DNA from: Dehalococcoidia bacterium | GTDB lineage: Bacteria > Chloroflexota > Dehalococcoidia > Lucifugimonadales > HRBIN23 | Reading direction: 5' to 3' | Length of the DNA: 64,000 nucleotides | Assembly: GCA_025060295.1 (NCBI GenBank) | Contig: JANXCH010000011.1 | Location: 87,904 to 151,903, forward strand | Part shown: piece after piece, positions 6,605 to 41,069 of the stretch | How positions within the stretch are numbered: position 1 is the first letter of the stretch | Layout: each line of letters opens with the position of its first letter | Made by a program: the position numbers and the translations under genes | The notes under the pieces: generated by a model | The model's input: the letters and a program-made list of their open reading frames with translations, nothing else | What the model was told of the DNA's origin: nothing | Database searches by the model: none

Positions 6605-7597
6605 TCAACTGGCCGAGCCATACAGGTGGCAGGCCACCTGATGCCCGGGGCGCACCTCCAGGGTCGGAGGCTCCACCTGGGAACAGTGGGGCATGGCGAA
6701 GGGACACCTCGGATGGAACCGGCACCCCCTGGGAATGTTGAGGGGAGAGGGCACCTCCCCCGTCAGGATGATCTCCTCCCGGTGGATATCGGGATGGGAG
6801 GGGAGGGCGGCGGAGAGGAGGGCTTTAGTGTAGGGGTGCAGGGGGTTATCAAACAACTCCCCGCTGGGAGCCGACTCCACGATGCGCCCCAGGTACATCA
6901 CCGCCACCCGATGGCACATATAGCGCACCGTAGCCAGGTGGTGAGCAATGAGCAGATAACTCAGGTTGAACTGTTTCTGCAGGTCTTTCAAAAGATTCAT
7001 AATCTGGGCGCGGATGGACACATCCAGTGCCGACACCGGCTCGTCCAGAACGATGAGTTTGGGGTTCAGGGCCAAGGCGCGGGCGATGGCGATGCGTTGG
7101 CGCTGGCCCCCGCTGAACTCGTGGGGATACAGGGTGGCGTGGTGAGGGTTCAGCCCCACATTCTCCAACAACTGGGCCACCCGCTCCCGCGTCTCCTGGG
7201 GCGACAGTTTCAGGTTGATGTCCAGAGGCTCGGCGACGATCTTCCCCACCCGCATGCGGGGGTTCAGGGACGCCCACGGGTCCTGGAACACGGCCTGCAC
7301 CGACTGGCGATACCGCTTCCTCTGGGCACCATCCATGCGTACCACATCCTGGCCCTCAAAGAGGATGGTACCTGCCGTGGGCGTCTCCAGCATCAGCACC
7401 ATCTTGGCGGTGGTGGTCTTCCCGCATCCCGATTCCCCAACCAGTCCCAACGTCTCCCCCTGGCGAATCACAAAGGAGACACCGTCCACCGCCTTCAACA
7501 GGGCGGGCTTGCGGAACAGCCCCCGCCCCACCGGGAAGTACTTCTTCACCTCCCGGGCTTCCAAGAGCACCTGTCCGTCAGACGGCGACCCATTCAT
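6605..7597 (-). CDS. ABC transporter ATP-binding protein (OppF/DppF-like)
   Basis: From the internal ATG it reads MNGSPSDGQVLLEAREVKKYF...GLVGESGCGKTT (Walker A)...LSGGQRQRIAIARAL...LIVLDEPVSALD. This start overlaps the upstream stop as ATGA (7597/7594). The track N-terminus (to 7894) is an extension into the upstream gene. Confidence 0.9.
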   Translation of the reverse strand: MNGSPSDGQVLLEAREVKKYFPVGRGLFRKPALLKAVDGVSFVIRQGETLGLVGESGCGKTTTAKMVLMLETPTAGTILFEGQDVVRMDGAQRKRYRQSVQAVFQDPWASLNPRMRVGKIVAEPLDINLKLSPQETRERVAQLLENVGLNPHHATLYPHEFSGGQRQRIAIARALALNPKLIVLDEPVSALDVSIRAQIMNLLKDLQKQFNLSYLLIAHHLATVRYMCHRVAVMYLGRIVESAPSGELFDNPLHPYTKALLSAALPSHPDIHREEIILTGEVPSPLNIPRGCRFHPRCPFAMPHCSQVEPPTLEVRPGHQVACHLYGSAS

Positions 7598-8807: not shown

Positions 8808-10619
8808 ATGCAGAGGACACGGTGGTCGCTCATCCTCATCGGCGTGCTGGGGTTGGCCCTCTTCCTGGTGGGGGCGTGTCGGCCGGCGGCAGCGCCCACC
8901 CCCACCCCTACACGGGCACCCGCCCCCGCCCCCGCCGTCGCCGTTACCCCCACCCCCACACCCATCCCGCCCACGCCCACCCCACCCCCCGTCATCACCC
9001 CCACCGGCACCCTTACCGTCGCCGTCGCCACGGTGAATGTGCCCGCTGGGACTCCCCGCTTCTGCACCGCCGGGTGCGCCGAGAACGTCTACCTCGCCAG
9101 TGTGATGGAGACCCTCTTCCGCCCCGCCTCGGGCGACATCGCCGGCGAGAAGCCCGAAGTGCCCATCCTGGCCGAATCCTGGACTATGGATACCCAGGTG
9201 CCCCCGCGCTGGCTGGACTTCAAACTGCGCCCGGGAATCCAGTTCCACAGAGGCTATGGGGAGATGACCGCCGAGGATGTGGCCTTCTCCTTCAACGACG
9301 CCAACTCCCGCACCACCCCCGAAAGCATCCACGGCCAGGCCGGCGACTTCTACCCCCTCATCAAAAAGATGGAGCCCCTGGACAAGTACACCGTCCGCCT
9401 CTGGTATGAGACCTTTGACAGCCGCGGCCTTCGCCACCGCTTCAGCCTCTTCTGGCAGACCGCTGGTGTGACCAGCAAGAAGGTGTTTGACGAACTGGGC
9501 CCCGAGCGGATGCGCACCGTGTTCATCGGCACCGGCCCCTTCCAGATGGTGGAATACACCCAGAACAAGGGCATCTTTATGGAGGCGGTGGATCGCCACT
9601 GGCGGCAGACGGCCCGCTTCAAGACCGTGCGCATCCTGGAGGTGCCCGAGACGGCCACCCGCCGCGCCATGGCCCTGACGGGTGAGGCGGATATCGTCCA
9701 GGCAGCCCTGAAGGATGTGCCCGACCTGGTGCGGGCAGGTCTGAAGACTGCCGAAACAGGCAACTACGACCAGATGGTTATCTACTTCACCGGCAACTAT
9801 TGGGAGAAGCGCCACCCCATCACGGGCGAGCCCCTCAACCGCAAACTGGACTTGACCAAGCCCTGGGTCTCCCCCAACCCCGACGATGACCCCGCCCGCG
9901 CCGAGCAGGCCCGCAAAATCCGTTGGGCACTGGCTTTGACCATTGACCGTGAGGCGCTGAATCAGGCCATCCTGCAGGGCTTGGGCCGGCCCGTGCACAT
10001 CGGCTATGTGTCCGTGGCCCACAAGGAGTTCCAAGAGAAATGGAAGGTGCCCTACGACCCCGCCCGCGCCCGCCAGCTGCTGCGGGAGGCCGGGGGCTGG
10101 CCCGCTGGCGTCAACATGGAGATGCACTGCTTTACCCCCGCTATCTGGAGCGAACTGTGTGAGGCCATCGCTAGCGTCTGGCTGACCGAGTTGGGCATCA
10201 AGACCGACATTGAGAAGGTGGCCTACACGGTCTACCGCCCAGGCCTGGTGCAGCGCACCACCTCCAAGCCCATCATCTTCCCAGGCGACGATGGCAAGTC
10301 CGCCTTCCCCTATCGCTGGGCCAAGGGCTTCACCAACAGCGCCATCAGTTCGGGTGGGTTCGGCGTGGGCATGGAGATTCCCAAGATGACCGAGTTCTAC
10401 CTCAAGGCTGCCGCTGAGATAGATCCCCTCAAGCAGAAGCAAATTGTGGACCAGTTCCACGACTACTCCTACCACTGGATGCTGATGCCCGGCACCATCG
10501 AGGCTCCCCTCTTGCTTATCTATAACCCGCGCCGCATCGCCTCCTGGGACATCCTGCCCAACGCCAACGGCAACCTGGGGGGCCTGAACAACTTGGAGAG
10601 CGTGGTGCCCGCCCGCTAG
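8808..10619 (+). CDS. ABC transporter substrate-binding lipoprotein, family 5 (peptide/nickel/oligosaccharide type)
   Basis: 603 aa. A signal peptide with a lipobox-like LFLVGAC is followed by a Pro/Thr/Ala linker (APTPTPTRAPAPAPAVAVTPTPTPIPPTPTPPP), then an SBP_bac_5-like body. A GGGAGGGAAGG SD is present. Confidence 0.85.
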   Translation: MQRTRWSLILIGVLGLALFLVGACRPAAAPTPTPTRAPAPAPAVAVTPTPTPIPPTPTPPPVITPTGTLTVAVATVNVPAGTPRFCTAGCAENVYLASVMETLFRPASGDIAGEKPEVPILAESWTMDTQVPPRWLDFKLRPGIQFHRGYGEMTAEDVAFSFNDANSRTTPESIHGQAGDFYPLIKKMEPLDKYTVRLWYETFDSRGLRHRFSLFWQTAGVTSKKVFDELGPERMRTVFIGTGPFQMVEYTQNKGIFMEAVDRHWRQTARFKTVRILEVPETATRRAMALTGEADIVQAALKDVPDLVRAGLKTAETGNYDQMVIYFTGNYWEKRHPITGEPLNRKLDLTKPWVSPNPDDDPARAEQARKIRWALALTIDREALNQAILQGLGRPVHIGYVSVAHKEFQEKWKVPYDPARARQLLREAGGWPAGVNMEMHCFTPAIWSELCEAIASVWLTELGIKTDIEKVAYTVYRPGLVQRTTSKPIIFPGDDGKSAFPYRWAKGFTNSAISSGGFGVGMEIPKMTEFYLKAAAEIDPLKQKQIVDQFHDYSYHWMLMPGTIEAPLLLIYNPRRIASWDILPNANGNLGGLNNLESVVPAR

Positions 10620-31334: not shown

Positions 31335-34300
31335 TTACCCCGCAGGCGTGGGGGGTGGCCCCTCCCGATACTCGGGCAGACGACGCACGGTATAGCGCCC
31401 CCCGTTGCTAATAAGGGCCTCCACCGCCGCCCGTGCCGTGTCCAGCCAGGTGAAGCAGGGGATACGCCTTTCGGCCGCCGCCCGCCGAATGTAAAAGCCA
31501 TCCCGCAGGGGGTCCCGCCCGCCGGAGAGGGTGTTCACCACCGCATCTACCAACCCCGCCTTGATCACATCCACCACACTGGGCTGGTCAGGGGTGCTGT
31601 GGGTCAGCTTGCTCACCGTCTTGACATGGCTGATGCCCACATCCCGCAGGAAGCGCGCCGTCCCCTCGGTGGCATAGAAACCCCACCCCTGCCGTGCCAA
31701 TGCCAGGGCGATCTCGGCCCCCTCGGGCTTGGTGCGGTCGGACAGGCTCAGCAGGATGTTCCCCTTAGGGGGCAGGTGCATCCCCGCCGCCATCAACGCC
31801 TTGGTCAGCGCCGCGTGGAAGTCGTGGTCAATCCCCATCACCTCGCCCGTGGACTTCATCTCCGGCCCCAGGTAGGTATCGGCCCCCGTCAGTTTGCTCA
31901 TACTGAACACCGGGGCCTTCACGGCCACCAGCTTCATCCGCCGATAGAGGCCCCCCTGCCACCCCTGCCGGCGCAGGCTGATGCCCAGCATGGCGTGGGT
32001 GGCCAGACGCACCATAGGCACCCCCGTTACCTTGCTGATGAAGGGGATGGTGCGGCTGGCGCGCGGGTTGGCTTCAATGACATACACAGTGGACTTGAAG
32101 GGCTCGCTCGGGGGCTGACGGGGCGTGCGGTAGGGCGGCCCCCCCATCACGATGAACTGCACATTCATCAGCCCCACCACCCCCAGTGCCCGCCCGATGC
32201 GCTGGGTGTAATCCACCAGCGTCTCCACCTCCTCGGGCGTCAAGGTTACCCCCGGATAGACGGTGATAGCATCCCCCGAATGGACGCCCGCCCGCTCAAT
32301 GTGCTCCATCATCCCAGGAATCAGCACCTCCTCCCCATCGCACACGGCATCTACTTCACACTCCTTCCCCTCCATATACTTGTCCACCAGCAGGGGCTTC
32401 CCGGGGGAGACCTCCAACGCCGAGCGGGCATACTGCTCCAGTTCCTCGGGGGTGTAGACGATCTCCATCGCCCGCCCCCCCAGCACATAACTGGGGCGCA
32501 CCAGCACGGGGTAGCCGATGTGCTCGGCCACCTCCAAGGCGTCCTGCACCGAGAGCACCGCCGCCCCCGGCGGTTGGGGAATCCCCAAACTGGACAGAAA
32601 CTCCTCCCACTTGCTCCGGTCGGACGCGATGTCAATGGCCTTGGCCGAGGAGCCCAGGATGGGCAGGCCCGCCCGGTCCACCCCCTGGGAGAGGTTGAGG
32701 GCCGTTTGCCCCCCGAACTGGACGACGGTGGGCGGGGGCCCCTCCTCGGCCGCCTCGTTCTCCAGCAGGTCGCGCACCGCCTCCTCGTCCAGGGCCTCAA
32801 AGTACAGGCGGTCGGAGGTGTCAAAGTCGGTGGAGACAGTTTCGGGGTTGGAGTTGGCCATCAGGGCCTTCCAGCCCGCCTTCTGCAGCGCCCACGCCGC
32901 GTGCACCGAGCAGTAGTCGAACTCTATCCCCTGCCCGATGCGGATGGGCCCCGAGCCGATGACCAAGGCCTTGCGCCCCGGGAGGGGGGGGGCCTCGTTC
33001 TCCTGCTCATAGGTGGAGTAGAAGTAGGGGGTAACCGCCTCAAACTCGGCGGCGCAGGTGTCCACCATCTTGTAAACAGGGCGGATGCCCCACTGCTGGC
33101 GCAAGGCGCGCACCCGCTCCGGCAGGCCCTGGGCATGGCCCAGGGCGGCGATGGTGGCATCCGAGAAGCCCATGCGCTTGGCCTCCCGCAGGAGGGCAGG
33201 GGTCAACTCCTCCTTCAGGAGGCGCTGTTCCATCTGCATGATGCGCCCAATGGCACGGGTGAACCAGGGGTCTATGAGAGAGGTGCGGGAGACCTCTTCG
33301 GGAGTGGCCCCACGGCGAATGGCAGCGGCGATGGCCCACAGGCGCAAATCGTGGGGTGGGAAGAGGGGAATATCCCGCCAGTCCTTGCGCTCCCGCCACG
33401 CCGGCGCCTCCCACAGTAGGTTCTTGGCCTGGTGCTCCAGCCCCCGCACGGCCTTCTGCAGGGCCGCCTCAAAGGTGCGGTCTATGGCCATCACCTCCCC
33501 CGTGGACTTCATCTGGGTGGTGAGGGTGCGGTCGGCATAGGGGAACTTGTCAAAGGGCCAGCGGGGGATTTTCACCACACAGTAGTCCAAGGCCGGCTCA
33601 AAACACGCCAGGGTCTTGCGGGTAACGGCGTTGGGAATCTCGTCCAATCGCTTGCCGATGGCTATCTTGGCGGCCACACGGGCGATGGGGTAGCCTGTGG
33701 CCTTGGAGGCCAGGGCGCTGGAACGGCTGACGCGGGGGTTGACCTCAATCACATAGTAGTCCAGGGGGCTTTTGGGACGGGCCGCTTCGGGCAGGGCCTC
33801 GGCCACGATGGGATGGGGGGCCAGGGCGAACTGGATGTTGCATCCCCCCTCTATCCCCAGGGCGCGGATGATGCGGAGCGCCGCCGAGCGGAGCATCTGG
33901 TGCTCCTTATCGGACAGGGTCTGGGACGGAGCCACCACAATGGACTCCCCCGTGTGGACGCCCATGGGGTCCATGTTCTCCATGTTGCACACGGTGATGC
34001 AGTTGTTGGCCCCGTCCCGCATCACCTCGTACTCCAGTTCCTTCCAGCCCTCCACGGAGCGCTCCAGGAGCACCTGGTGCACGGGGCTGGCGTGCAGGCC
34101 CCGCTGCACGATTTCCTCCAACTCCTCCCACCGGCGCACCATACCCCCGCCCGTGCCCCCCAGGGTATAGGCGGGGCGCACCACCAACGGCAGGCCCACC
34201 TCCTCGGCAAAGCGGCGCGCCTCGGCCACAGAGGTAACGGTGGTATTGGGGGGCTGGGGCTCGCCAATCTCCTGCAAAAGTTGGCGGAACAGCTCCCGGT

Positions 34301-34679
34301 CCTCGGCGCGCTTGATGGCCATGAGGGGCGTGCCCAGCAGGCGCACCCCATACTTGTCCAAAATGCCCTTTTCGGCCAGTTCCACCGCCATGTTGAGGCC
34401 CGTCTGCCCCCCCAGAGTAGGCAACAGGCCATCGGGGCGCTCCCGGGCGATGATCCGCTCCAACACCTCAACCGTGAGCGGTTCAATGTACACGATGTCG
34501 GCGATGTCCTCGTCCGTCATGATGGTGGCGGGGTTGGGGTTGACCAGGACGGTGATCACCCCCTCCTCCCGCAGGGAGCGGCACGCCTGGGCGCCGGCGT
34601 AATCAAACTCGGCCGCCTGGGCGATGACAATAGGACCAGAGCCGATGACCAGCACTTTAGAGGGTTTGAAAGCCATCAC
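31335..34679 (-). CDS. carB: carbamoyl-phosphate synthase large subunit
   Basis: 1114 aa. The sequence opens [32 protein letters not shown] and has duplicated ATP-grasp halves plus an MGS-like C-terminus. Confidence 0.97.
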
Positions 34680-35011
34680 AACTCCTTTCCTGTGCGCAGG
34701 ACTTCCTCAGCGAAGGGGTTCCCTTCCCGAAGCATCTGCTCCCACTCCTGGGGGGGGTAGACCAGCGGCTCTATGGGCAGGTCGCCCGCCAGGCGCAGGA
34801 TGGCATCGGCACGGTAGGGGAAACGCTCCCCAAAGTCGCCGATGATGACCAGATCTATATCGCTTCCCTCGTGCACCTCCCCACGGGCGAAGGAGCCGAA
34901 CAGGATGACCTTCTGCACGGGGTAGGTAGCCTTGAGGAGGCGCACAAAGGCCTCCAGGCGCTGGGCGTACTCCTCCAAGCGATCTAGGTCTATGCGCACG
35001 ACCTTGCTCAT
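34676..35011 (-). CDS. nucleotidyltransferase-domain protein (MNT antitoxin-type partner of HEPN)
   Basis: Reads [17 protein letters not shown]...[23 protein letters not shown] (the GSxxRGxxxxxSDxD motif). Its ATG overlaps the HEPN stop as ATGA, and its stop overlaps the carB start by 4 nt. Confidence 0.8.
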
Positions 35012-35469
35012 GCCCCCTCCTGGGGGAGTTTGCTCTGCACGAAGGTGAGAATGGCAAAGGCGGCGGTGAGGCATCGCTGGGCATCCTGGGCCGTAAAGAA
35101 GTCGGCGGGAGCCTGGTGCCCGCCCAGGGCGTTGGGATAGCGTGTCGTTATGTAGAACAGAGCCAACAGATGGGCCTGCTCCGCTACCTGGGCGAAAGTG
35201 GGGTCTATCCTCTGGCACTCCCGCACCAGGTCATCCAAGGCTTGGGTCAAGATAGAGGTGCGCCCGTGCTGATAGAGGAAGGCTTTAAGGGCCTTTTCGG
35301 CGCACTGCTGGGCCTGGAAGCAGGCCCACTCGTAGCGCCCTGCCCCTGCACTCGCTTGAGCGCCCTCCCAGTCGGCTTGGCTTTGGCGCAGCCACGCTTT
35401 TGCGACGGGGCGCACCGCCTTTTCCCCCTCCATCTGTGCTATCGTGGGACCCGGCATGGAGAAGGACAC
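35008..35469 (-). CDS. HEPN-domain protein (toxin-type partner of MNT); start uncertain (35469, 35457 or 35433)
   Basis: Reads ...AKAWLRQSQADWEGAQASAGAGRYEWACFQAQQCAEKALKAFLYQHG...FYITTRYPN. Confidence 0.75.
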   Translation of the reverse strand: MSFSMPGPTIAQMEGEKAVRPVAKAWLRQSQADWEGAQASAGAGRYEWACFQAQQCAEKALKAFLYQHGRTSILTQALDDLVRECQRIDPTFAQVAEQAHLLALFYITTRYPNALGGHQAPADFFTAQDAQRCLTAAFAILTFVQSKLPQEGA

Positions 35470-35813
35470 ACGCTACTGGTATGACCAGGTGGAGTACGAT
35501 GGGGAGACGGCACAGGCCATGTTCCGTAGCCGTCGGTATCGGTCTGTGGTGTTTTTCTGCCACCGGGCGTTGGAGCAGAGGGTGAAGGGGCTGGGGGCCC
35601 AGGCGACGGGCACCACCCCTCCCCGCACCCACGACTTGGGACGGCTGGCGGCACTGGCCAACGGACACCTCCTGTGGCGTACGGGGCCTTCCTGGACGAA
35701 CCGACGCACCTGACCCTAGAGGGCCGATACCCAACCCTGGGCCTGCCCTTGACGCGAAGCAAGGCCCAGGCCACAGCAAGTGCACGGGCGTGGTGGTCGT
35801 CCAGCGGGGCTAG
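35456..35813 (+). pseudogene. frameshifted orphan HEPN-domain gene
   Basis: MEKDTRYWYDQVEYDGETAQAMFRSRRYRSVVFFCHRALEQRVKGL...PPRTHDLGRLAALA continues in another frame as ...FLDEPTHLTLEGRYPTLGLPLTRSKAQA. The shift is near 35665-35675. A second shift is needed to reach a sensible end (...VVVVQRG* at 35811..35813). No MNT partner lies on this strand. Confidence 0.6.
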
Positions 35814-35832
35814 GCGAGGGCGCATAGGAGCC

Positions 35833-36222
35833 TCACCTCCCTTGGGGCTCATACAGACGCACCCCTGGGATGCGCTGGAAGTGAGCATCCAGGGTGTAGA
35901 CGGGGCAATCGTGCTCAATAGCTAGGGCGGCGATGAGGAGGTCAGTGAGCCCCACTTTTTGGCCCCGTTGGCGTAACTGATAGGAGAGCTCAGCAACACG
36001 AAGCCAAGTCCCGTGGGTCTCCGTAGCGTAAGGGAGGGCGATCAAACGGCTCTGTAAGGGTGCGAACTCCTGGGGAGTCCGTGCCCCCTGAAGCAGTTCT
36101 GCCAACACCGGCCCTACCATCAGAACCTGCCTTTGAGCCAAGAGATAATCCACAGCGCGGTGCTCTGGCGACCCAAGGGCGCGCAGGAACTGCACCCATA
36201 CGGAGGTATCTACGATGACCAT
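35833..36222 (-). CDS. vapC: PIN-domain ribonuclease toxin VapC
   Basis: Reads MVIVDTSVWVQFLR...GPVLAELLQG...GLTDLLIAALAIEHDCPVYTLDAHF. Confidence 0.9.
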   Translation of the reverse strand: MVIVDTSVWVQFLRALGSPEHRAVDYLLAQRQVLMVGPVLAELLQGARTPQEFAPLQSRLIALPYATETHGTWLRVAELSYQLRQRGQKVGLTDLLIAALAIEHDCPVYTLDAHFQRIPGVRLYEPQGR

Positions 36223-36227
36223 AGCCC

Positions 36228-36434
36228 TTACCGGGGTGCATCCATATGGCGCAGGTCGTACCAGTCGTCGCCCAGGTCTATGGTGCCCGCCATCGCCCGC
36301 AACTCCTCTATACGCTTCCAGCGGATGTATTCCTCCAGGGCCTTAGCGAGAGCCTTGCTTTTCCGCTTCTCCCCCGTGACCCGCAGCACCTCCTCCACCA
36401 GTTTGGCGTCTATGCTGACGGTTGTTCGCACCAC
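36228..36434 (-). CDS. vapB: type II antitoxin VapB (DUF2191-like)
   Basis: Reads (M)VRTTVSIDAKLVEEVLRVTGEKRKSKALAKALEEYIRWKR. Uses a GTG start with a GGAGGTG SD. The small palindrome GGCACGTTTGTGCC lies between the carA stop and this SD. Confidence 0.8.
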   Translation of the reverse strand: MVRTTVSIDAKLVEEVLRVTGEKRKSKALAKALEEYIRWKRIEELRAMAGTIDLGDDWYDLRHMDAPR

Positions 36435-36458
36435 GCACCTCCAGGCACAAACGTGCCA

Positions 36459-37550
36459 TTACTCTCCCGCTTTCCCTCGCACCATCTCCATAAACTGGTC
36501 AAACAGGTACTCGTTGTCCCGCGGCCCTGGGGACGCCTCCGAGTGATACTGAATGGTCAGCAGAGGCAGGGAGCGGTGGCGCATCCCCTCCACCGTCCCG
36601 TCGTTCAGATTGATGTGGCTCACCTCCAGGTCGGGCGGGAGGGAGTCCGCATCCACCGCATACCCGTGGTTCTGGGCGGTGATGTACACCCGCCCTGTGC
36701 GCATGTCGCGGACGGGGTGATTGCCCCCCCGATGGCCGAACTTCAGTTTGAAGGTGCGCCCCCCGAAGGCGCGGGCGAGCACCTGATGCCCCAGGCAGAT
36801 GCCCAGAAGGGGCACCCGCCCCACCAGCCCCCGCGCCGTCTGCACCACCCCGTCCAGCAGGGCGGGGTCGCCCGGCCCGGGGGAGAACACCACCCCATCC
36901 GGGCGCAGGGCCAACACCTGCTCTGCCGTAAAGGTAGAAGGCACCACCGTTACCCGACACCCCCGACGGTTCAACAGGCGCATGATGTTGTACTTCAACC
37001 CGCAGTCGAAGGCCACGATATGCCACCGCTCGGCGGTGGTGGCGGGCCAGGTGTACAGGCTCCCTGTGGTAACCTTCTGCACAAAGTCCACATTGCCATA
37101 AGGGGGCACATCCCGCAGGCGGGCCAGGGCGCTTTCGGGGCCTTCGTCGCACGCCAGAATTCCCATCATTACCCCCCGCGTGCGCAGGCGATGGGTCAAC
37201 GCCCGCGTATCCACCTCCGTCAGCCCCGGCACCCCGTAGGCCTTCAGGAAGGCGTCCAGGGTCATCTCCGCTCGCGGATGGCTGGGCTGGGGACACCACT
37301 GGCGCACCACCATCCCCGCCACCTGAATCCGCCGCGACTCAAAGTCCTCCCGATTGATGCCGTAGTTCCCCTGCATGGGGTATGTGGGCACCAAAATCTG
37401 CCCCGCATAAGAGGGGTCGGTCAGCATCTCCTGATAGCCCGTCATGGAGGTGTTGAACACCACCTCCCCATAGGCCGACTCCTCCGCCCCAAACACCTCC
37501 CCCTCAAACACCGAGCCGTCTTCCAGCACCAGGTAGCCTCGCTTGCCCAT
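36459..37550 (-). CDS. carA: carbamoyl-phosphate synthase small (glutaminase) subunit
   Basis: Reads MGKRGYLVLEDGSVFEGEVFGAE...GEVVFNTSMTGYQE...GICLGHQ...QYHSEASPGP. Confidence 0.95.
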   Translation of the reverse strand: MGKRGYLVLEDGSVFEGEVFGAEESAYGEVVFNTSMTGYQEMLTDPSYAGQILVPTYPMQGNYGINREDFESRRIQVAGMVVRQWCPQPSHPRAEMTLDAFLKAYGVPGLTEVDTRALTHRLRTRGVMMGILACDEGPESALARLRDVPPYGNVDFVQKVTTGSLYTWPATTAERWHIVAFDCGLKYNIMRLLNRRGCRVTVVPSTFTAEQVLALRPDGVVFSPGPGDPALLDGVVQTARGLVGRVPLLGICLGHQVLARAFGGRTFKLKFGHRGGNHPVRDMRTGRVYITAQNHGYAVDADSLPPDLEVSHINLNDGTVEGMRHRSLPLLTIQYHSEASPGPRDNEYLFDQFMEMVRGKAGE

Positions 37551-37551
37551 G

Positions 37552-37977
37552 TTATGTCTCCTTTGTCGCCAGGGGGCGGCGCACCAGCCACAGGCTCACC
37601 GCCACCCGCCACAGCATCAGCAGGAGGGCATTGCCCCCCAGGAAGATGACCACCACCGGCACCACCAGGGGCCGGTGGAGCCACTCGCTCCGAAGCCACA
37701 GCCCCACCAGGCCCGCCACGAGCCACGGCCCCACAACCCGCCACCACGCCACCCGCGGGTGGCTGACGGCCGAGGGGTGAAAGGCCCCCAACACACCCCC
37801 CACTATCAGCCACGCCACCGCCAACGGCACCGCATTGCGCAGGATACCCTGCAGGGTTACAGCCGTCTGGTGGCTCATCAGTCCCAACACCGCAAACACC
37901 CCAAACGACAGCAGGTCGCCCGCCAGCACCAGAGCCATCAAACCCCACGCACGCCGGGGTGGCACCAGGGCCCTCAT
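37552..37977 (-). CDS. DUF3054-like small membrane protein embedded in the pyr operon
   Basis: Reads MRALVPPRRAWGLMALVLAGDLLSFGVFAVLGLMSH..., with four hydrophobic segments. The ATG overlaps the pyrC stop as ATGA. The track ORF (to 38127) is over-extended. Confidence 0.65.
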   Translation of the reverse strand: MRALVPPRRAWGLMALVLAGDLLSFGVFAVLGLMSHQTAVTLQGILRNAVPLAVAWLIVGGVLGAFHPSAVSHPRVAWWRVVGPWLVAGLVGLWLRSEWLHRPLVVPVVVIFLGGNALLLMLWRVAVSLWLVRRPLATKET

Positions 37978-39338
37978 AGGCTCCCCCCTCCTGCGGGCGC
38001 GGCTGTGCGGGCGTCGTAGACCACCCTGCCCCCCACCACCGTGCCCACCACCCGCCCTTGGAGTGTTACCCCCGCCAGGGGTGTGTTCTTGCCCTTGGAG
38101 GCGAAGCGGTCGGGATCCACCGTCCACCGCTCCGCTAGGTTCAGGAGCACCAGGTCACCCCACGCCCCGGGGCGCAGGCTTCCCAGCCCTTTCCCCCGCT
38201 CCCCCAGCACCCGTGCCGGCCCGATGGTCAGGGCCTCCACCAGGCGTCGGAAGGGCAAGCCCCCCTGCACCACCAACGCGGTGTAGCACAGGGCGAAGGC
38301 CGTCTCCAACCCGCTGATGCCGAAGGCCGCCTCGGCGAAGGTGCCCATCTTATCCACCGCTGTATGGGGGGCGTGGTCGGTGGCGATGGCGTCAATCACC
38401 CCCTCCCGCAAAGCCTGCTGGAGGGCGTCCCGATGCTCCGCACTGCGCAGGGGCGGGTTCACCTTACAAGCCGTGTCATACGCCCGCGCCGAGAGGGGGG
38501 CAAAGGGCGACCCCTCCCCGTGCTCCCCCAAGAGCCACGCATCCGTCAAACACAAGTGGTGGGGTGTCGCCTCGGCCGTCACGGGCAGGCCCCGCTCCTT
38601 GGCCCGGCGCACCACCTCCACCGTGCCCGCCGTGGAGATGTGGGCCAAGTGCAGACGCCCCCCTGTCAGGGCGCACAGGGCGATATCCCGACTGGCCATG
38701 CTCTCCTCCGCCTGGGGAGGCACCCCCGGCAGGCCCAGCCGACTGGCCACCCACCCCTCGTGGGCCACACCCCGCGCCAGGGCTGGCTCCTCCAGGTGGT
38801 TGATAATCGGAAGGCCGATGAGGGTGCTGTAGTGCAAGGCCGTGCGCATCAGGAAGGCGTTGGCCACAGGTGCCCCGTCGTCGGAGAAGCCCACCACCCC
38901 CGCCTGGGCCAAATCGGCCAGTTCGGCCAGTTCCCGCCCCTGTCGCCCCTTGCTGATGCACCCCAGGGGCAGAACGCGCGCCAGCCCCACCGCCTCCCCC
39001 CGCCGACGCACCGCCTCCACCAGGGCGGGGGTGTCAATGGGGGGTTGGGTATTGGGCATAGCGCACACGGTGGTGAAGCCCCCTTTGACCGCCGCCAGGG
39101 CGCCGGTGGCGATGGTCTCCTTCTCCTCCTCCCCGGGTTCCCGCAGGTGGGTGTGGAGGTCCACAAAGCCGGGGCAGACCACCAGCCCTGTGGCGTCCAG
39201 CACCAACGCCTCATCGGGCGGGGCCAGGGATGGGCCCACCGCCTCCACACGCCCCTCCCGAATCAACACATGGGCGGTGGCGTCCACCCCCTGGGAGGGG
39301 TCCACCACCCGCCCGCCCCGCACCAGCAGGGGCCTCAT
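37974..39338 (-). CDS. pyrC: dihydroorotase
   Basis: Reads MRPLLVRGGRVVDP...GFVDLHTHLREPG...ATDHAPH. ATG 39338 overlaps the pyrB stop as ATGA. The track start at 39362 is possible but less likely. Confidence 0.9.
   Translation of the reverse strand: MRPLLVRGGRVVDPSQGVDATAHVLIREGRVEAVGPSLAPPDEALVLDATGLVVCPGFVDLHTHLREPGEEEKETIATGALAAVKGGFTTVCAMPNTQPPIDTPALVEAVRRRGEAVGLARVLPLGCISKGRQGRELAELADLAQAGVVGFSDDGAPVANAFLMRTALHYSTLIGLPIINHLEEPALARGVAHEGWVASRLGLPGVPPQAEESMASRDIALCALTGGRLHLAHISTAGTVEVVRRAKERGLPVTAEATPHHLCLTDAWLLGEHGEGSPFAPLSARAYDTACKVNPPLRSAEHRDALQQALREGVIDAIATDHAPHTAVDKMGTFAEAAFGISGLETAFALCYTALVVQGGLPFRRLVEALTIGPARVLGERGKGLGSLRPGAWGDLVLLNLAERWTVDPDRFASKGKNTPLAGVTLQGRVVGTVVGGRVVYDARTAAPAGGGSL

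Positions 39339-40388: not shown

Positions 40389-41069
<681 letters not shown>

Follow-up and report, generated by a model that had tools for sequence, protein, structure and literature searches.

In a 64,000-nucleotide (nt) stretch from the genome of a Dehalococcoidia bacterium (GenBank assembly GCA_025060295.1, contig JANXCH010000011.1; this whole stretch is called the window below), genes of the toxin-antitoxin (TA) type lie inside the pyrimidine (pyr) operon, between carA and carB, the genes for the two subunits of carbamoyl-phosphate synthase. The locus raises the question of how such an islet came to sit there and what it means for carB. The original prediction regarded the islet as wedged between the two genes, and proposed that carB expression depends on the TA modules or that TA autoregulation is wired into the supply of arginine and pyrimidine precursors. 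Our comparative analysis points elsewhere: the islet is probably the remnant of an old cluster of three TA modules, and its survivors are probably dispensable passengers on a PyrR-attenuated pyr transcript, with carB coupled to the MNT gene.

Organization of the islet

The minus strand carries, in this order, pyrR, pyrB, pyrC, a DUF3054 gene, carA, vapB, vapC, HEPN1, MNT1 and carB. From carA to carB the features are:

36459..37550, minus strand: carA, carbamoyl-phosphate synthase small subunit (TIGR01368, 469.9 bits; Pfam CPSase_sm_chain and GATase)
36435..36458, minus strand: carA-vapB spacer, with the palindrome GGCACGTTTGTGCC at 36457-36444 and a GGAGG Shine-Dalgarno site at 36442-36438
36228..36434 (or from 36431), minus strand: vapB, antitoxin gene (PF09957, E 8.5e-7)
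35833..36222, minus strand: vapC, PIN-domain toxin gene (PIN, E 1.5e-15; NF047959, 94 bits)
35771..35860: deletion junction, at which about 400 nt of the related contig L175 (antisense MNT2 and the HEPN2 3' end) are missing in the window
35456..35770 (end about 35770-35830), plus strand: psi-HEPN2, a dead HEPN gene (PF05168, E 7e-11 on the first 85 amino acids (aa))
35437..35445, plus strand: extended -10-like box TGCTATCGT, 10 nt 5' of the psi-HEPN2 ATG
35008..35415, minus strand: HEPN1, intact, 135 aa (PF05168, E 1.2e-25; the mechanical open reading frame (ORF) reaches 35469)
34676..35011, minus strand: MNT1, minimal nucleotidyltransferase (NTP_transf_2, E 3.2e-12)
31335..34679 (or from 34676), minus strand: carB, carbamoyl-phosphate synthase large subunit (NF003671, 1451 bits)

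Searches against Pfam and NCBIfam families confirmed the earlier naming of the four small ORFs as VapB, VapC (PIN), HEPN and MNT. The order carA, vapB, vapC, HEPN, MNT, carB was also correct, but the statement that all genes lie on the minus strand was not: the approximately 420 nt between vapC and HEPN1 hold the decayed HEPN gene, psi-HEPN2, on the plus strand. The junctions between carA and carB proved as tight as described. The vapB start follows the carA stop by 24-27 nt, and the gap from the vapB stop to the vapC start is 5 nt, a spacing repeated in the closest linked relatives (L081-L089, L110, L116). The HEPN1 stop and the MNT1 ATG overlap as ATGA, as had been noticed. The reported 4-nt overlap of MNT1 and carB holds if carB starts at GTG 34679 but shrinks to 1 nt with ATG 34676, and the two starts are indistinguishable here. 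With carA and carB on the same strand, unrelated ORFs between them and no terminator, the locus has the make-up of a carAB operon with intervening genes.

Closest relatives of the islet

A CarA scan of species-representative genomes returned 80 loci, mostly from Chloroflexota and some from Armatimonadota, at 48-67% identity and none above 67%. The closest relatives were reached only through homologues of psi-HEPN2. These are bacterium HR23 (L172) and three metagenomic contigs (L173-L175), with CarA 87-89% and CarB 89-92% identical to those of the window. Between carA and carB, all four carry an intact opposite-strand HEPN2-MNT2 pair and no intact vapBC. Alignment of the window with L175 by blastn gave four collinear blocks:

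carA 3' part: window 36699-36479, L175 1500-1280
vapC 3' end: window 35900-35861, L175 1220-1181
HEPN2, spacer and about the first 18 HEPN1 codons: window 35770-35361, L175 756-340
MNT1 3' end and carB: window 34721-34500, L175 322-103

Remnants of vapB, vapC, HEPN1 and MNT1 were found in L173-L175. In L175 they comprise a vapB remnant (RIEELRAMLGTLD), into which an altered carA C-terminus now reads, a remnant of the vapC C-terminus (YTRDEHSQRIPGVTVYAPPG) and, directly 5' of carB, a fusion of about the first 19 HEPN1 codons (with a stop at codon 6) to about the last 13 MNT1 codons (LDEEVLRTGREL, then a stop). The deletion that removed vapBC from L173-L175 replaced the last CarA residues as well. 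At L175 1233-1290, and also in L173 and L174, the carA frame now ends in FLEMMHILADRGTAGYAGHP before its stop, having run out of frame across the vapB remnant. HR23 retains HEPN2-MNT2 only, without recognisable scars. A further relative, L170, is 76% identical to the window in DNA over 1.17 kb that take in the antisense HEPN2 start, HEPN1, MNT1 and carB, with the same overlaps.

Because L170 has this layout and L173-L175 combine an intact HEPN2-MNT2 pair with scars of the other modules, we reconstruct the common ancestor as carA, vapB-vapC, antisense MNT2/HEPN2, sense HEPN1-MNT1 and carB. In the window lineage, HEPN2 was apparently frameshifted and about 400 nt were deleted (MNT2 and the HEPN2 3' end); the L175 lineage appears to have deleted vapBC and HEPN1-MNT1. 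On this reconstruction the whole islet is older than the split from relatives whose CarA and CarB are 87-92% identical to those of the window. The comparisons of vapBC below point to a long residence at carA, and the simple wedging-in first proposed is not supported. Since these relatives have deleted both vapBC and the sense HEPN-MNT pair and their carB is apparently intact, carB would need neither module, which weakens, for this genome, both of the consequences that had been drawn from the arrangement.

We also considered a recent horizontal insertion, by which a mobile TA cassette would have been wedged into a contiguous carAB pair in this genome or in a very recent ancestor. The slightly lower G+C of the islet (0.60-0.64, compared with 0.65-0.71 in its flanks) and the lower third-position G+C (GC3) of vapC (0.66, compared with 0.84 for carA) would agree with such an event, as would the contiguity of carA and carB in 29 of 70 related loci. 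We rejected this explanation as hardly credible, because L170 has the same layout at 76% nucleotide identity, L173-L175 bear scars of the same modules and a carA-linked VapBC occurs in 19 other distinct loci. In addition, VapB (up to 70%) and VapC (up to 69%) are about as similar to their counterparts in relatives as CarA is (61-70%).

Residence of vapBC at the 3' end of carA

The vapB product scored 29.2 bits against PF09957 (curated cut-off 23.4). Its start is most likely the second GTG (36431), which gives 67 aa, matches the MRTT start of relatives and is better spaced from the GGAGG site. VapC reached 94 bits against the NCBIfam VapC equivalog NF047959 (cut-off 80), its closest solved structure is Mycobacterium tuberculosis VapC11 (6a7v), and the acidic residues D5, E42, D94 and D112 do not vary among 60 family members, P0001 of the window being one of them. 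Thus a PIN toxin with four acidic active-site residues is preceded directly, and in the same orientation, by a small VapB-family gene. The pair shares this arrangement, and its tight bicistron, with type II VapBC systems such as M. tuberculosis VapBC11 (6a7v) and VapBC15; the repeats over a promoter-like box in its relatives, described below, are likewise what would be expected for antitoxin autoregulation. It departs from these systems in that its place, at the carA 3' end within a pyrimidine operon, is fixed throughout a bacterial class; in the window, neither a promoter nor an operator belonging to the pair can be recognised.

Among the loci fetched with CarA, six of the 80 had vapB-vapC at carA. 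The contexts of the closest VapC homologues, with their identity to the window VapC, were:

71%, L081/L082: carA-vapB-vapC-RRM
66%, L083: pyrR-pyrB-pyrC-carA-orf-vapB-vapC-exonuclease-carB
61%, L084: carA-vapB-vapC-carB
60%, L085/L086 (SAR202): carA-vapB-vapC-GDPD-carB, where GDPD is glycerophosphodiester phosphodiesterase
58%, L089: carA-vapB-vapC-[intact antisense HEPN]-carB
53%, L087/L088 (Nitrospira): away from carA

All five distinct Chloroflexota-type homologues were therefore at carA and the Nitrospira homologue was not; the latter is free-standing and adjoins SLFN-like and AAA genes. A metagenome scan with a VapC alignment yielded 80 further loci. When VapC identity was at least 58% and the flanks were visible, all nine distinct sequences (window included) adjoined carA or carB. 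In L090 (VapC 68%) just 50 nt are visible upstream, and these encode a CarA-like C-terminus. The VapB of the window is 54-70% identical to the carA-linked VapB of L081, L083, L084, L086, L089 and L110, and 36-51% identical to the remaining linked VapB proteins. In a neighbour-joining tree, the 20 distinct carA- or carB-linked VapC sequences (window included) stood apart from a large free-standing clade. On the CarA tree, vapBC loci were concentrated in one region yet interspersed with loci in which carA and carB are contiguous or separated by other genes, and this pattern fits an old acquisition of vapBC followed by losses. Pairwise identities of both proteins showed weak positive co-divergence with CarA (Mantel r = 0.38 for VapC, reached in 42 of 5000 permutations; 0.30 for VapB, reached in 112 of 5000). 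Taken together, these comparisons indicate that vapBC has occupied the carA 3' end for a long time in Dehalococcoidia-type Chloroflexota.

Repeats across the carA stop codon in relatives

Most linked relatives have an AT-rich carA-vapB spacer of 35-38 nt that consists of GATGYA motifs exactly 13 nt apart. The array was found in L084, L086, L081, L083, L092, L101, L110, L116, L126, L093 and L094/L095 (35-60 nt 5' of vapB). In L092, for example, it reads TGATGTATGATAG TGATGCAGCATAG TGATGAGG. The array begins with a repeat in the final codons of carA; after its second repeat comes a TAnAAT box, and the last repeat overlaps the vapB Shine-Dalgarno site. Over 19 relatives, GATGYA averaged 1.2 occurrences per 60 nt upstream of vapB and 0.02 elsewhere in the same loci, an approximately 60-fold enrichment. 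Free-standing relatives have a TTGACA-17-TAYRAT promoter with GCATA repeats spaced 12-13 nt. By analogy to type II systems elsewhere, the GATGYA array is most likely the operator and promoter of VapB. The 60 nt upstream of vapB in the window contain neither GATGYA nor a TAnAAT box. The window spacer can be aligned base by base with the spacers of L093, L091 and L090, its nearest relatives by VapC, yet every repeat and the box have been lost. The window lineage thus appears to have lost the array, and vapBC here is left with no visible promoter of its own. Transcription from inside the TA modules, as suggested earlier, has some support in relatives, whose carA/vapB junction carries this promoter- and operator-like array, but the array is absent from the window.

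These repeats bear on a functional wiring of the kind first proposed, in which VapB or VapBC, bound to the array at the carA stop, governs an internal promoter or a roadblock and so sets carB expression independently of PyrR attenuation, tying TA autoregulation to carbamoyl phosphate supply. One VapBC group has been kept at this site over deep divergence with its PIN catalytic residues invariant; the 13-nt-periodic repeats and their TAnAAT box begin within the final codons of carA and extend as far as the vapB Shine-Dalgarno site, in a layout that parallels the canonical promoters of free-standing relatives; and carB often follows vapC by 0-105 nt in linked relatives. All of this would suit such wiring. 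However, the window itself has no array, its closest relatives deleted vapBC with carA and carB apparently intact, many carA loci of the same clade are contiguous with carB or have other genes in the slot, and in L081/L082 no carB follows carA-vapBC within the 6 kb visible downstream of vapC. We consider the wiring unlikely. It is similarly doubtful, in our judgement, that carA-linked VapBC is a domesticated regulator across Dehalococcoidia and that the window represents a lineage which has since lost such control.

The HEPN genes and their partners

HEPN1 most likely starts at GTG 35415, which is preceded by GGAGGGGG and gives a 135-aa product like NCBI protein P0121 (135 aa, 99% identical) and most homologues. 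HEPN1 and MNT1 are 73% and 79% identical to their L170 counterparts in the same layout. Across the HEPN family W8, D15, Q37, E40, K41, K44 and R92 are invariant, and Y93-P94 and His58 nearly so. The family alignment contained no Rx4-6H motif: the invariant R92 lies in an RYP motif with no conserved His 4-6 residues later. At codon 58 (35242-35244, minus strand) HEPN1 of the window has Gln, where 33 of 36 family members have His (THS motif); His is also found in its closest homologue, P0122 of L170. HEPN1 may be attenuated in the window. In MNT1, the GS...DID motif is visible in the translation; the score against the NCBIfam MntA family NF047752 was 32.8 bits (cut-off 60), and weak matches to solved structures include MntA chains.

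The closest solved proteins are the uncharacterised Thermus thermophilus TT1696 (1ufb) for HEPN and a minimal nucleotidyltransferase (1wot). With these and with type VII HepT/MntA the pair shares a PF05168 HEPN, a minimal nucleotidyltransferase with GS...DxD and overlapping genes. It differs from type VII HepT/MntA in gene order (HEPN then MNT here, the antitoxin gene being upstream in type VII, where the toxin is AMPylated), in the missing Rx4-6H, in Gln58 of the window and in falling short of the MntA equivalog score. HEPN1-MNT1 therefore resembles type VII systems in sequence, while failing or leaving open their defining features. We know of no test of toxin or antitoxin action for TT1696-type pairs. 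Another HEPN-MNT pair embedded among nucleotide-metabolism genes was seen in L171 (21-4415), where a HEPN1 homologue (48% identical) and an MNT gene directly follow phosphoribosyltransferase and adenine-deaminase-like genes.

The second HEPN gene, psi-HEPN2, is head-to-head with HEPN1 and convergent with vapC. It is 72-74% identical to the intact 126-aa proteins P0164 and P0165 over residues 1-69, after which the frame changes (at about 35663); about 35 further residues can be followed before the sequence degenerates, its 3' end is lost and its MNT partner has been deleted. The antisense HEPN of L089, which is intact, shares 40% identity with it. NCBI annotates its first 85 codons as a protein (P0163). 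An inverted duplication as the origin of the two HEPN genes was discarded, as HEPN1 matched only its own gene by tblastn, not psi-HEPN2, and the closest homologues of the two differ. The box TGCTATCGT is conserved as TGnTAxxxT about 10 nt 5' of the HEPN2 start in the window, L175 (approximately 421-431), L172 (approximately 6985-6993) and L170 (reverse complement). This conservation suggests a leaderless-type promoter, and the dead module may, speculatively, still be sending antisense transcription into vapC.

Transcription signals of the operon

Upstream of pyrR the window contains a leader element:

40945..41049, minus strand: putative PyrR-binding leader RNA with terminator hairpin (40978-40953), Rfam RF00515

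The Rfam match (49.2 bits, E 1.6e-4) lies just below the gathering score of 54. The hairpin has 10 G+C-rich pairs and is followed by the T-run TTTTTTGTGT. No other element was found in an Rfam scan of the operon. The first ORF of the operon was taken as pyrR, and its tblastn homologues in L083-L086 coincide with PF00156 Pribosyltran genes. The mechanical 'pyrR' ORF (41027-40389) begins too far upstream, because the leader and its hairpin lie within 40945-41049. This leader is likely the control point of the transcript that carries the islet.

A terminator scan of the islet gave no terminator-like site on the minus strand. The single terminator-like site of the islet (35013-35026, plus strand) is weak and was set aside. 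A consensus promoter scan inside the islet returned none, a count equal to that in shuffled sequence and of little weight for a Chloroflexota genome of 66% G+C. Because neither a minus-strand terminator nor a consensus promoter was found, transcription of the islet together with the pyr operon is the simplest reading, and to this extent the earlier proposal of co-transcription is retained as an inference. The palindrome GGCACGTTTGTGCC singled out earlier is present in the spacer, but it folds no better than shuffled sequence (z = -0.30) and no T-run follows it; it was dismissed as a terminator or structured RNA.

The carA-carB junction as a variable slot

Both carA and carB were visible in 70 of the 80 loci of the CarA scan. 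The gap between them was below 220 bp in 29 of these, and 320-6437 bp were inserted in the other 41. A comparison with related genomes, suggested earlier to see whether carA and carB are contiguous elsewhere, thus finds contiguity in the former group but not in the latter. The inserted genes included:

GNAT acetyltransferase: 12 loci
unknown 150-160-aa GNAT partner: 8 loci
vapB-vapC: 6 loci (vapC truncated in L014)
glycerophosphodiester phosphodiesterase (GDPD): 3 loci
S26 signal peptidase: 2 loci
uracil-DNA glycosylase (UDG): 1 locus (Thermoflexus)
PolB-type exonuclease: 1 locus
Hypoth_Ymh protein: 1 locus
HEPN genes, three copies: 1 locus

One metagenomic locus has GDPD-like and UDG-like genes, vapB, vapC, an exonuclease-like gene and then carB, the GDPD, UDG and exonuclease being named from motifs only. 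The slot genes examined included neither an integrase nor any other gene of a mobile element.

The variety of the slot invites a reading of the modules as anti-phage abortive-infection genes at a small hotspot, with turnover driven by phage pressure and not by neutral decay. HEPN, MNT, PIN and GNAT genes do occur in the slot across lineages with fast gain and loss, MNT1 matches the candidate families PDC-M05A and PDC-S09 in PADLOC, and the free-standing Nitrospira homologue stands beside SLFN-like and AAA genes. However, PADLOC gave no match for VapB, VapC or either HEPN, the slot also houses housekeeping-type genes (GDPD, UDG, signal peptidase, exonuclease), and no integrase or mobile-element gene accompanied the slot genes examined. 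A defence islet is, in our estimate, quite improbable.

The GNAT gene (about 150 aa) lies directly after carA in its 12 loci, which include L056, L068, L070, L075, L077, L079 and L080. These loci belong to another CarA clade, which includes a Tepidiformaceae metagenome-assembled genome, and the 150-160-aa protein that comes next in eight of them has no Pfam match. In L064, L065, L069 and L072 (Armatimonadota and related) carB seems split, into residues approximately 7-562 and 570-1089; in L064, L065 and L072 a distance of 0.5-2.1 kb separates the two parts, an arrangement like that of organisms whose carbamoyl-phosphate synthase large subunit is split. UDG genes occupy the slot in Thermoflexus hugenholtzii (L019 4647-5327, by Pfam) and in L095 (858-1493, by motifs alone), and L085 has a NUDIX gene (2345-2971) between pyrB and pyrC; genes of nucleotide sanitation thus recur inside the pyrimidine operon. 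A DUF3054 membrane-protein gene (37552-38127, minus strand) lies between pyrC and carA in the window and overlaps its neighbours. It is a second non-pyr gene embedded in the pyr operon and is common to the closest relatives (L175 2348-2779); L026 has it too (9624-9956).

Discussion

We regard it as probable that the islet is what is left of a three-module TA cluster. On this explanation, vapBC, HEPN1-MNT1 and carB would be read from the PyrR-controlled pyr transcript, and translation would be coupled from vapB to vapC, from HEPN1 to MNT1 and from MNT1 to carB, since at each of these junctions the stop and start codons overlap or nearly adjoin. The modules would persist by their own addictive properties, as self-maintaining passengers and not as parts of carbamoyl-phosphate synthase control, in a seam between two essential genes that may tolerate inserts and not large deletions. 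A HEPN that is harmful without its MNT could survive loss of the MNT only when inactivated, and the survival of psi-HEPN2 only as a pseudogene is the outcome expected in that case.

Several points weigh against this explanation. Co-transcription, translational coupling and toxicity are all read from sequence. The toxin label of HEPN1 is uncertain, because its family has no canonical Rx4-6H and the window has Gln at the near-invariant His, and carB may have a non-consensus promoter inside the islet. The neighbour-joining trees carry no bootstrap support, and under midpoint rooting the linked VapCs are a grade, which leaves a single clade unproven. The co-divergence with CarA is weak because the CarA identities cover a narrow range (61-70%). 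That a single VapBC group has stayed in one place over deep divergence is uncommon for a module that is purely selfish, and it could reflect a selected role.

Partial precedents exist for the locus. In Escherichia coli, the TA pair mazEF lies directly downstream of the housekeeping gene relA and is partly co-transcribed with it; mazEF stands at the end of its unit, not between subunit genes of one enzyme, and is not known to be conserved across a class. Lactococcus lactis has a pyrRPB-carA operon and transcribes carB separately. There carA ends a PyrR-controlled pyr operon and carB is separable, a natural seam like that of L081/L082, although without inserted TA genes. Co-transcribed unrelated ORFs between carA and carB are described for Pseudomonas aeruginosa (carA-orf-carB-greA) and Xanthomonas citri (carA-orf-carB) in PMC4619228, citing Lu et al. 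(1997). In these operons the insert is a single ORF of unknown function and not a TA module, and neither turnover nor scars are known to have been described.

In the searchable literature on TA genes in carAB or pyr operons we found no description of this arrangement. The component families are already known; the stable residence of a single VapBC group at the carA-carB junction across the Dehalococcoidia, the repeats spanning the carA stop and the three-module islet with reciprocal scars appear to be undescribed there. TA modules are usually viewed as mobile and patchy, whereas here one VapBC group has kept its place in a core biosynthetic operon throughout a class of bacteria, and its promoter- and operator-like repeats span the stop codon of the enzyme gene next to it. 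Sister lineages that kept different modules of one ancestral islet provide a natural experiment on how TA modules die, and the MNT-less module survived only in frameshifted form, as would be expected if its toxin was harmful. In Chloroflexota and Armatimonadota, the carA-carB junction stands out as a place where the pyr operon is permissive to inserts, which matters for operon prediction and annotation in these mostly uncultured groups. If the array of the relatives is indeed a VapB-controlled promoter that feeds carB, a TA system would have been recruited there into metabolic regulation.

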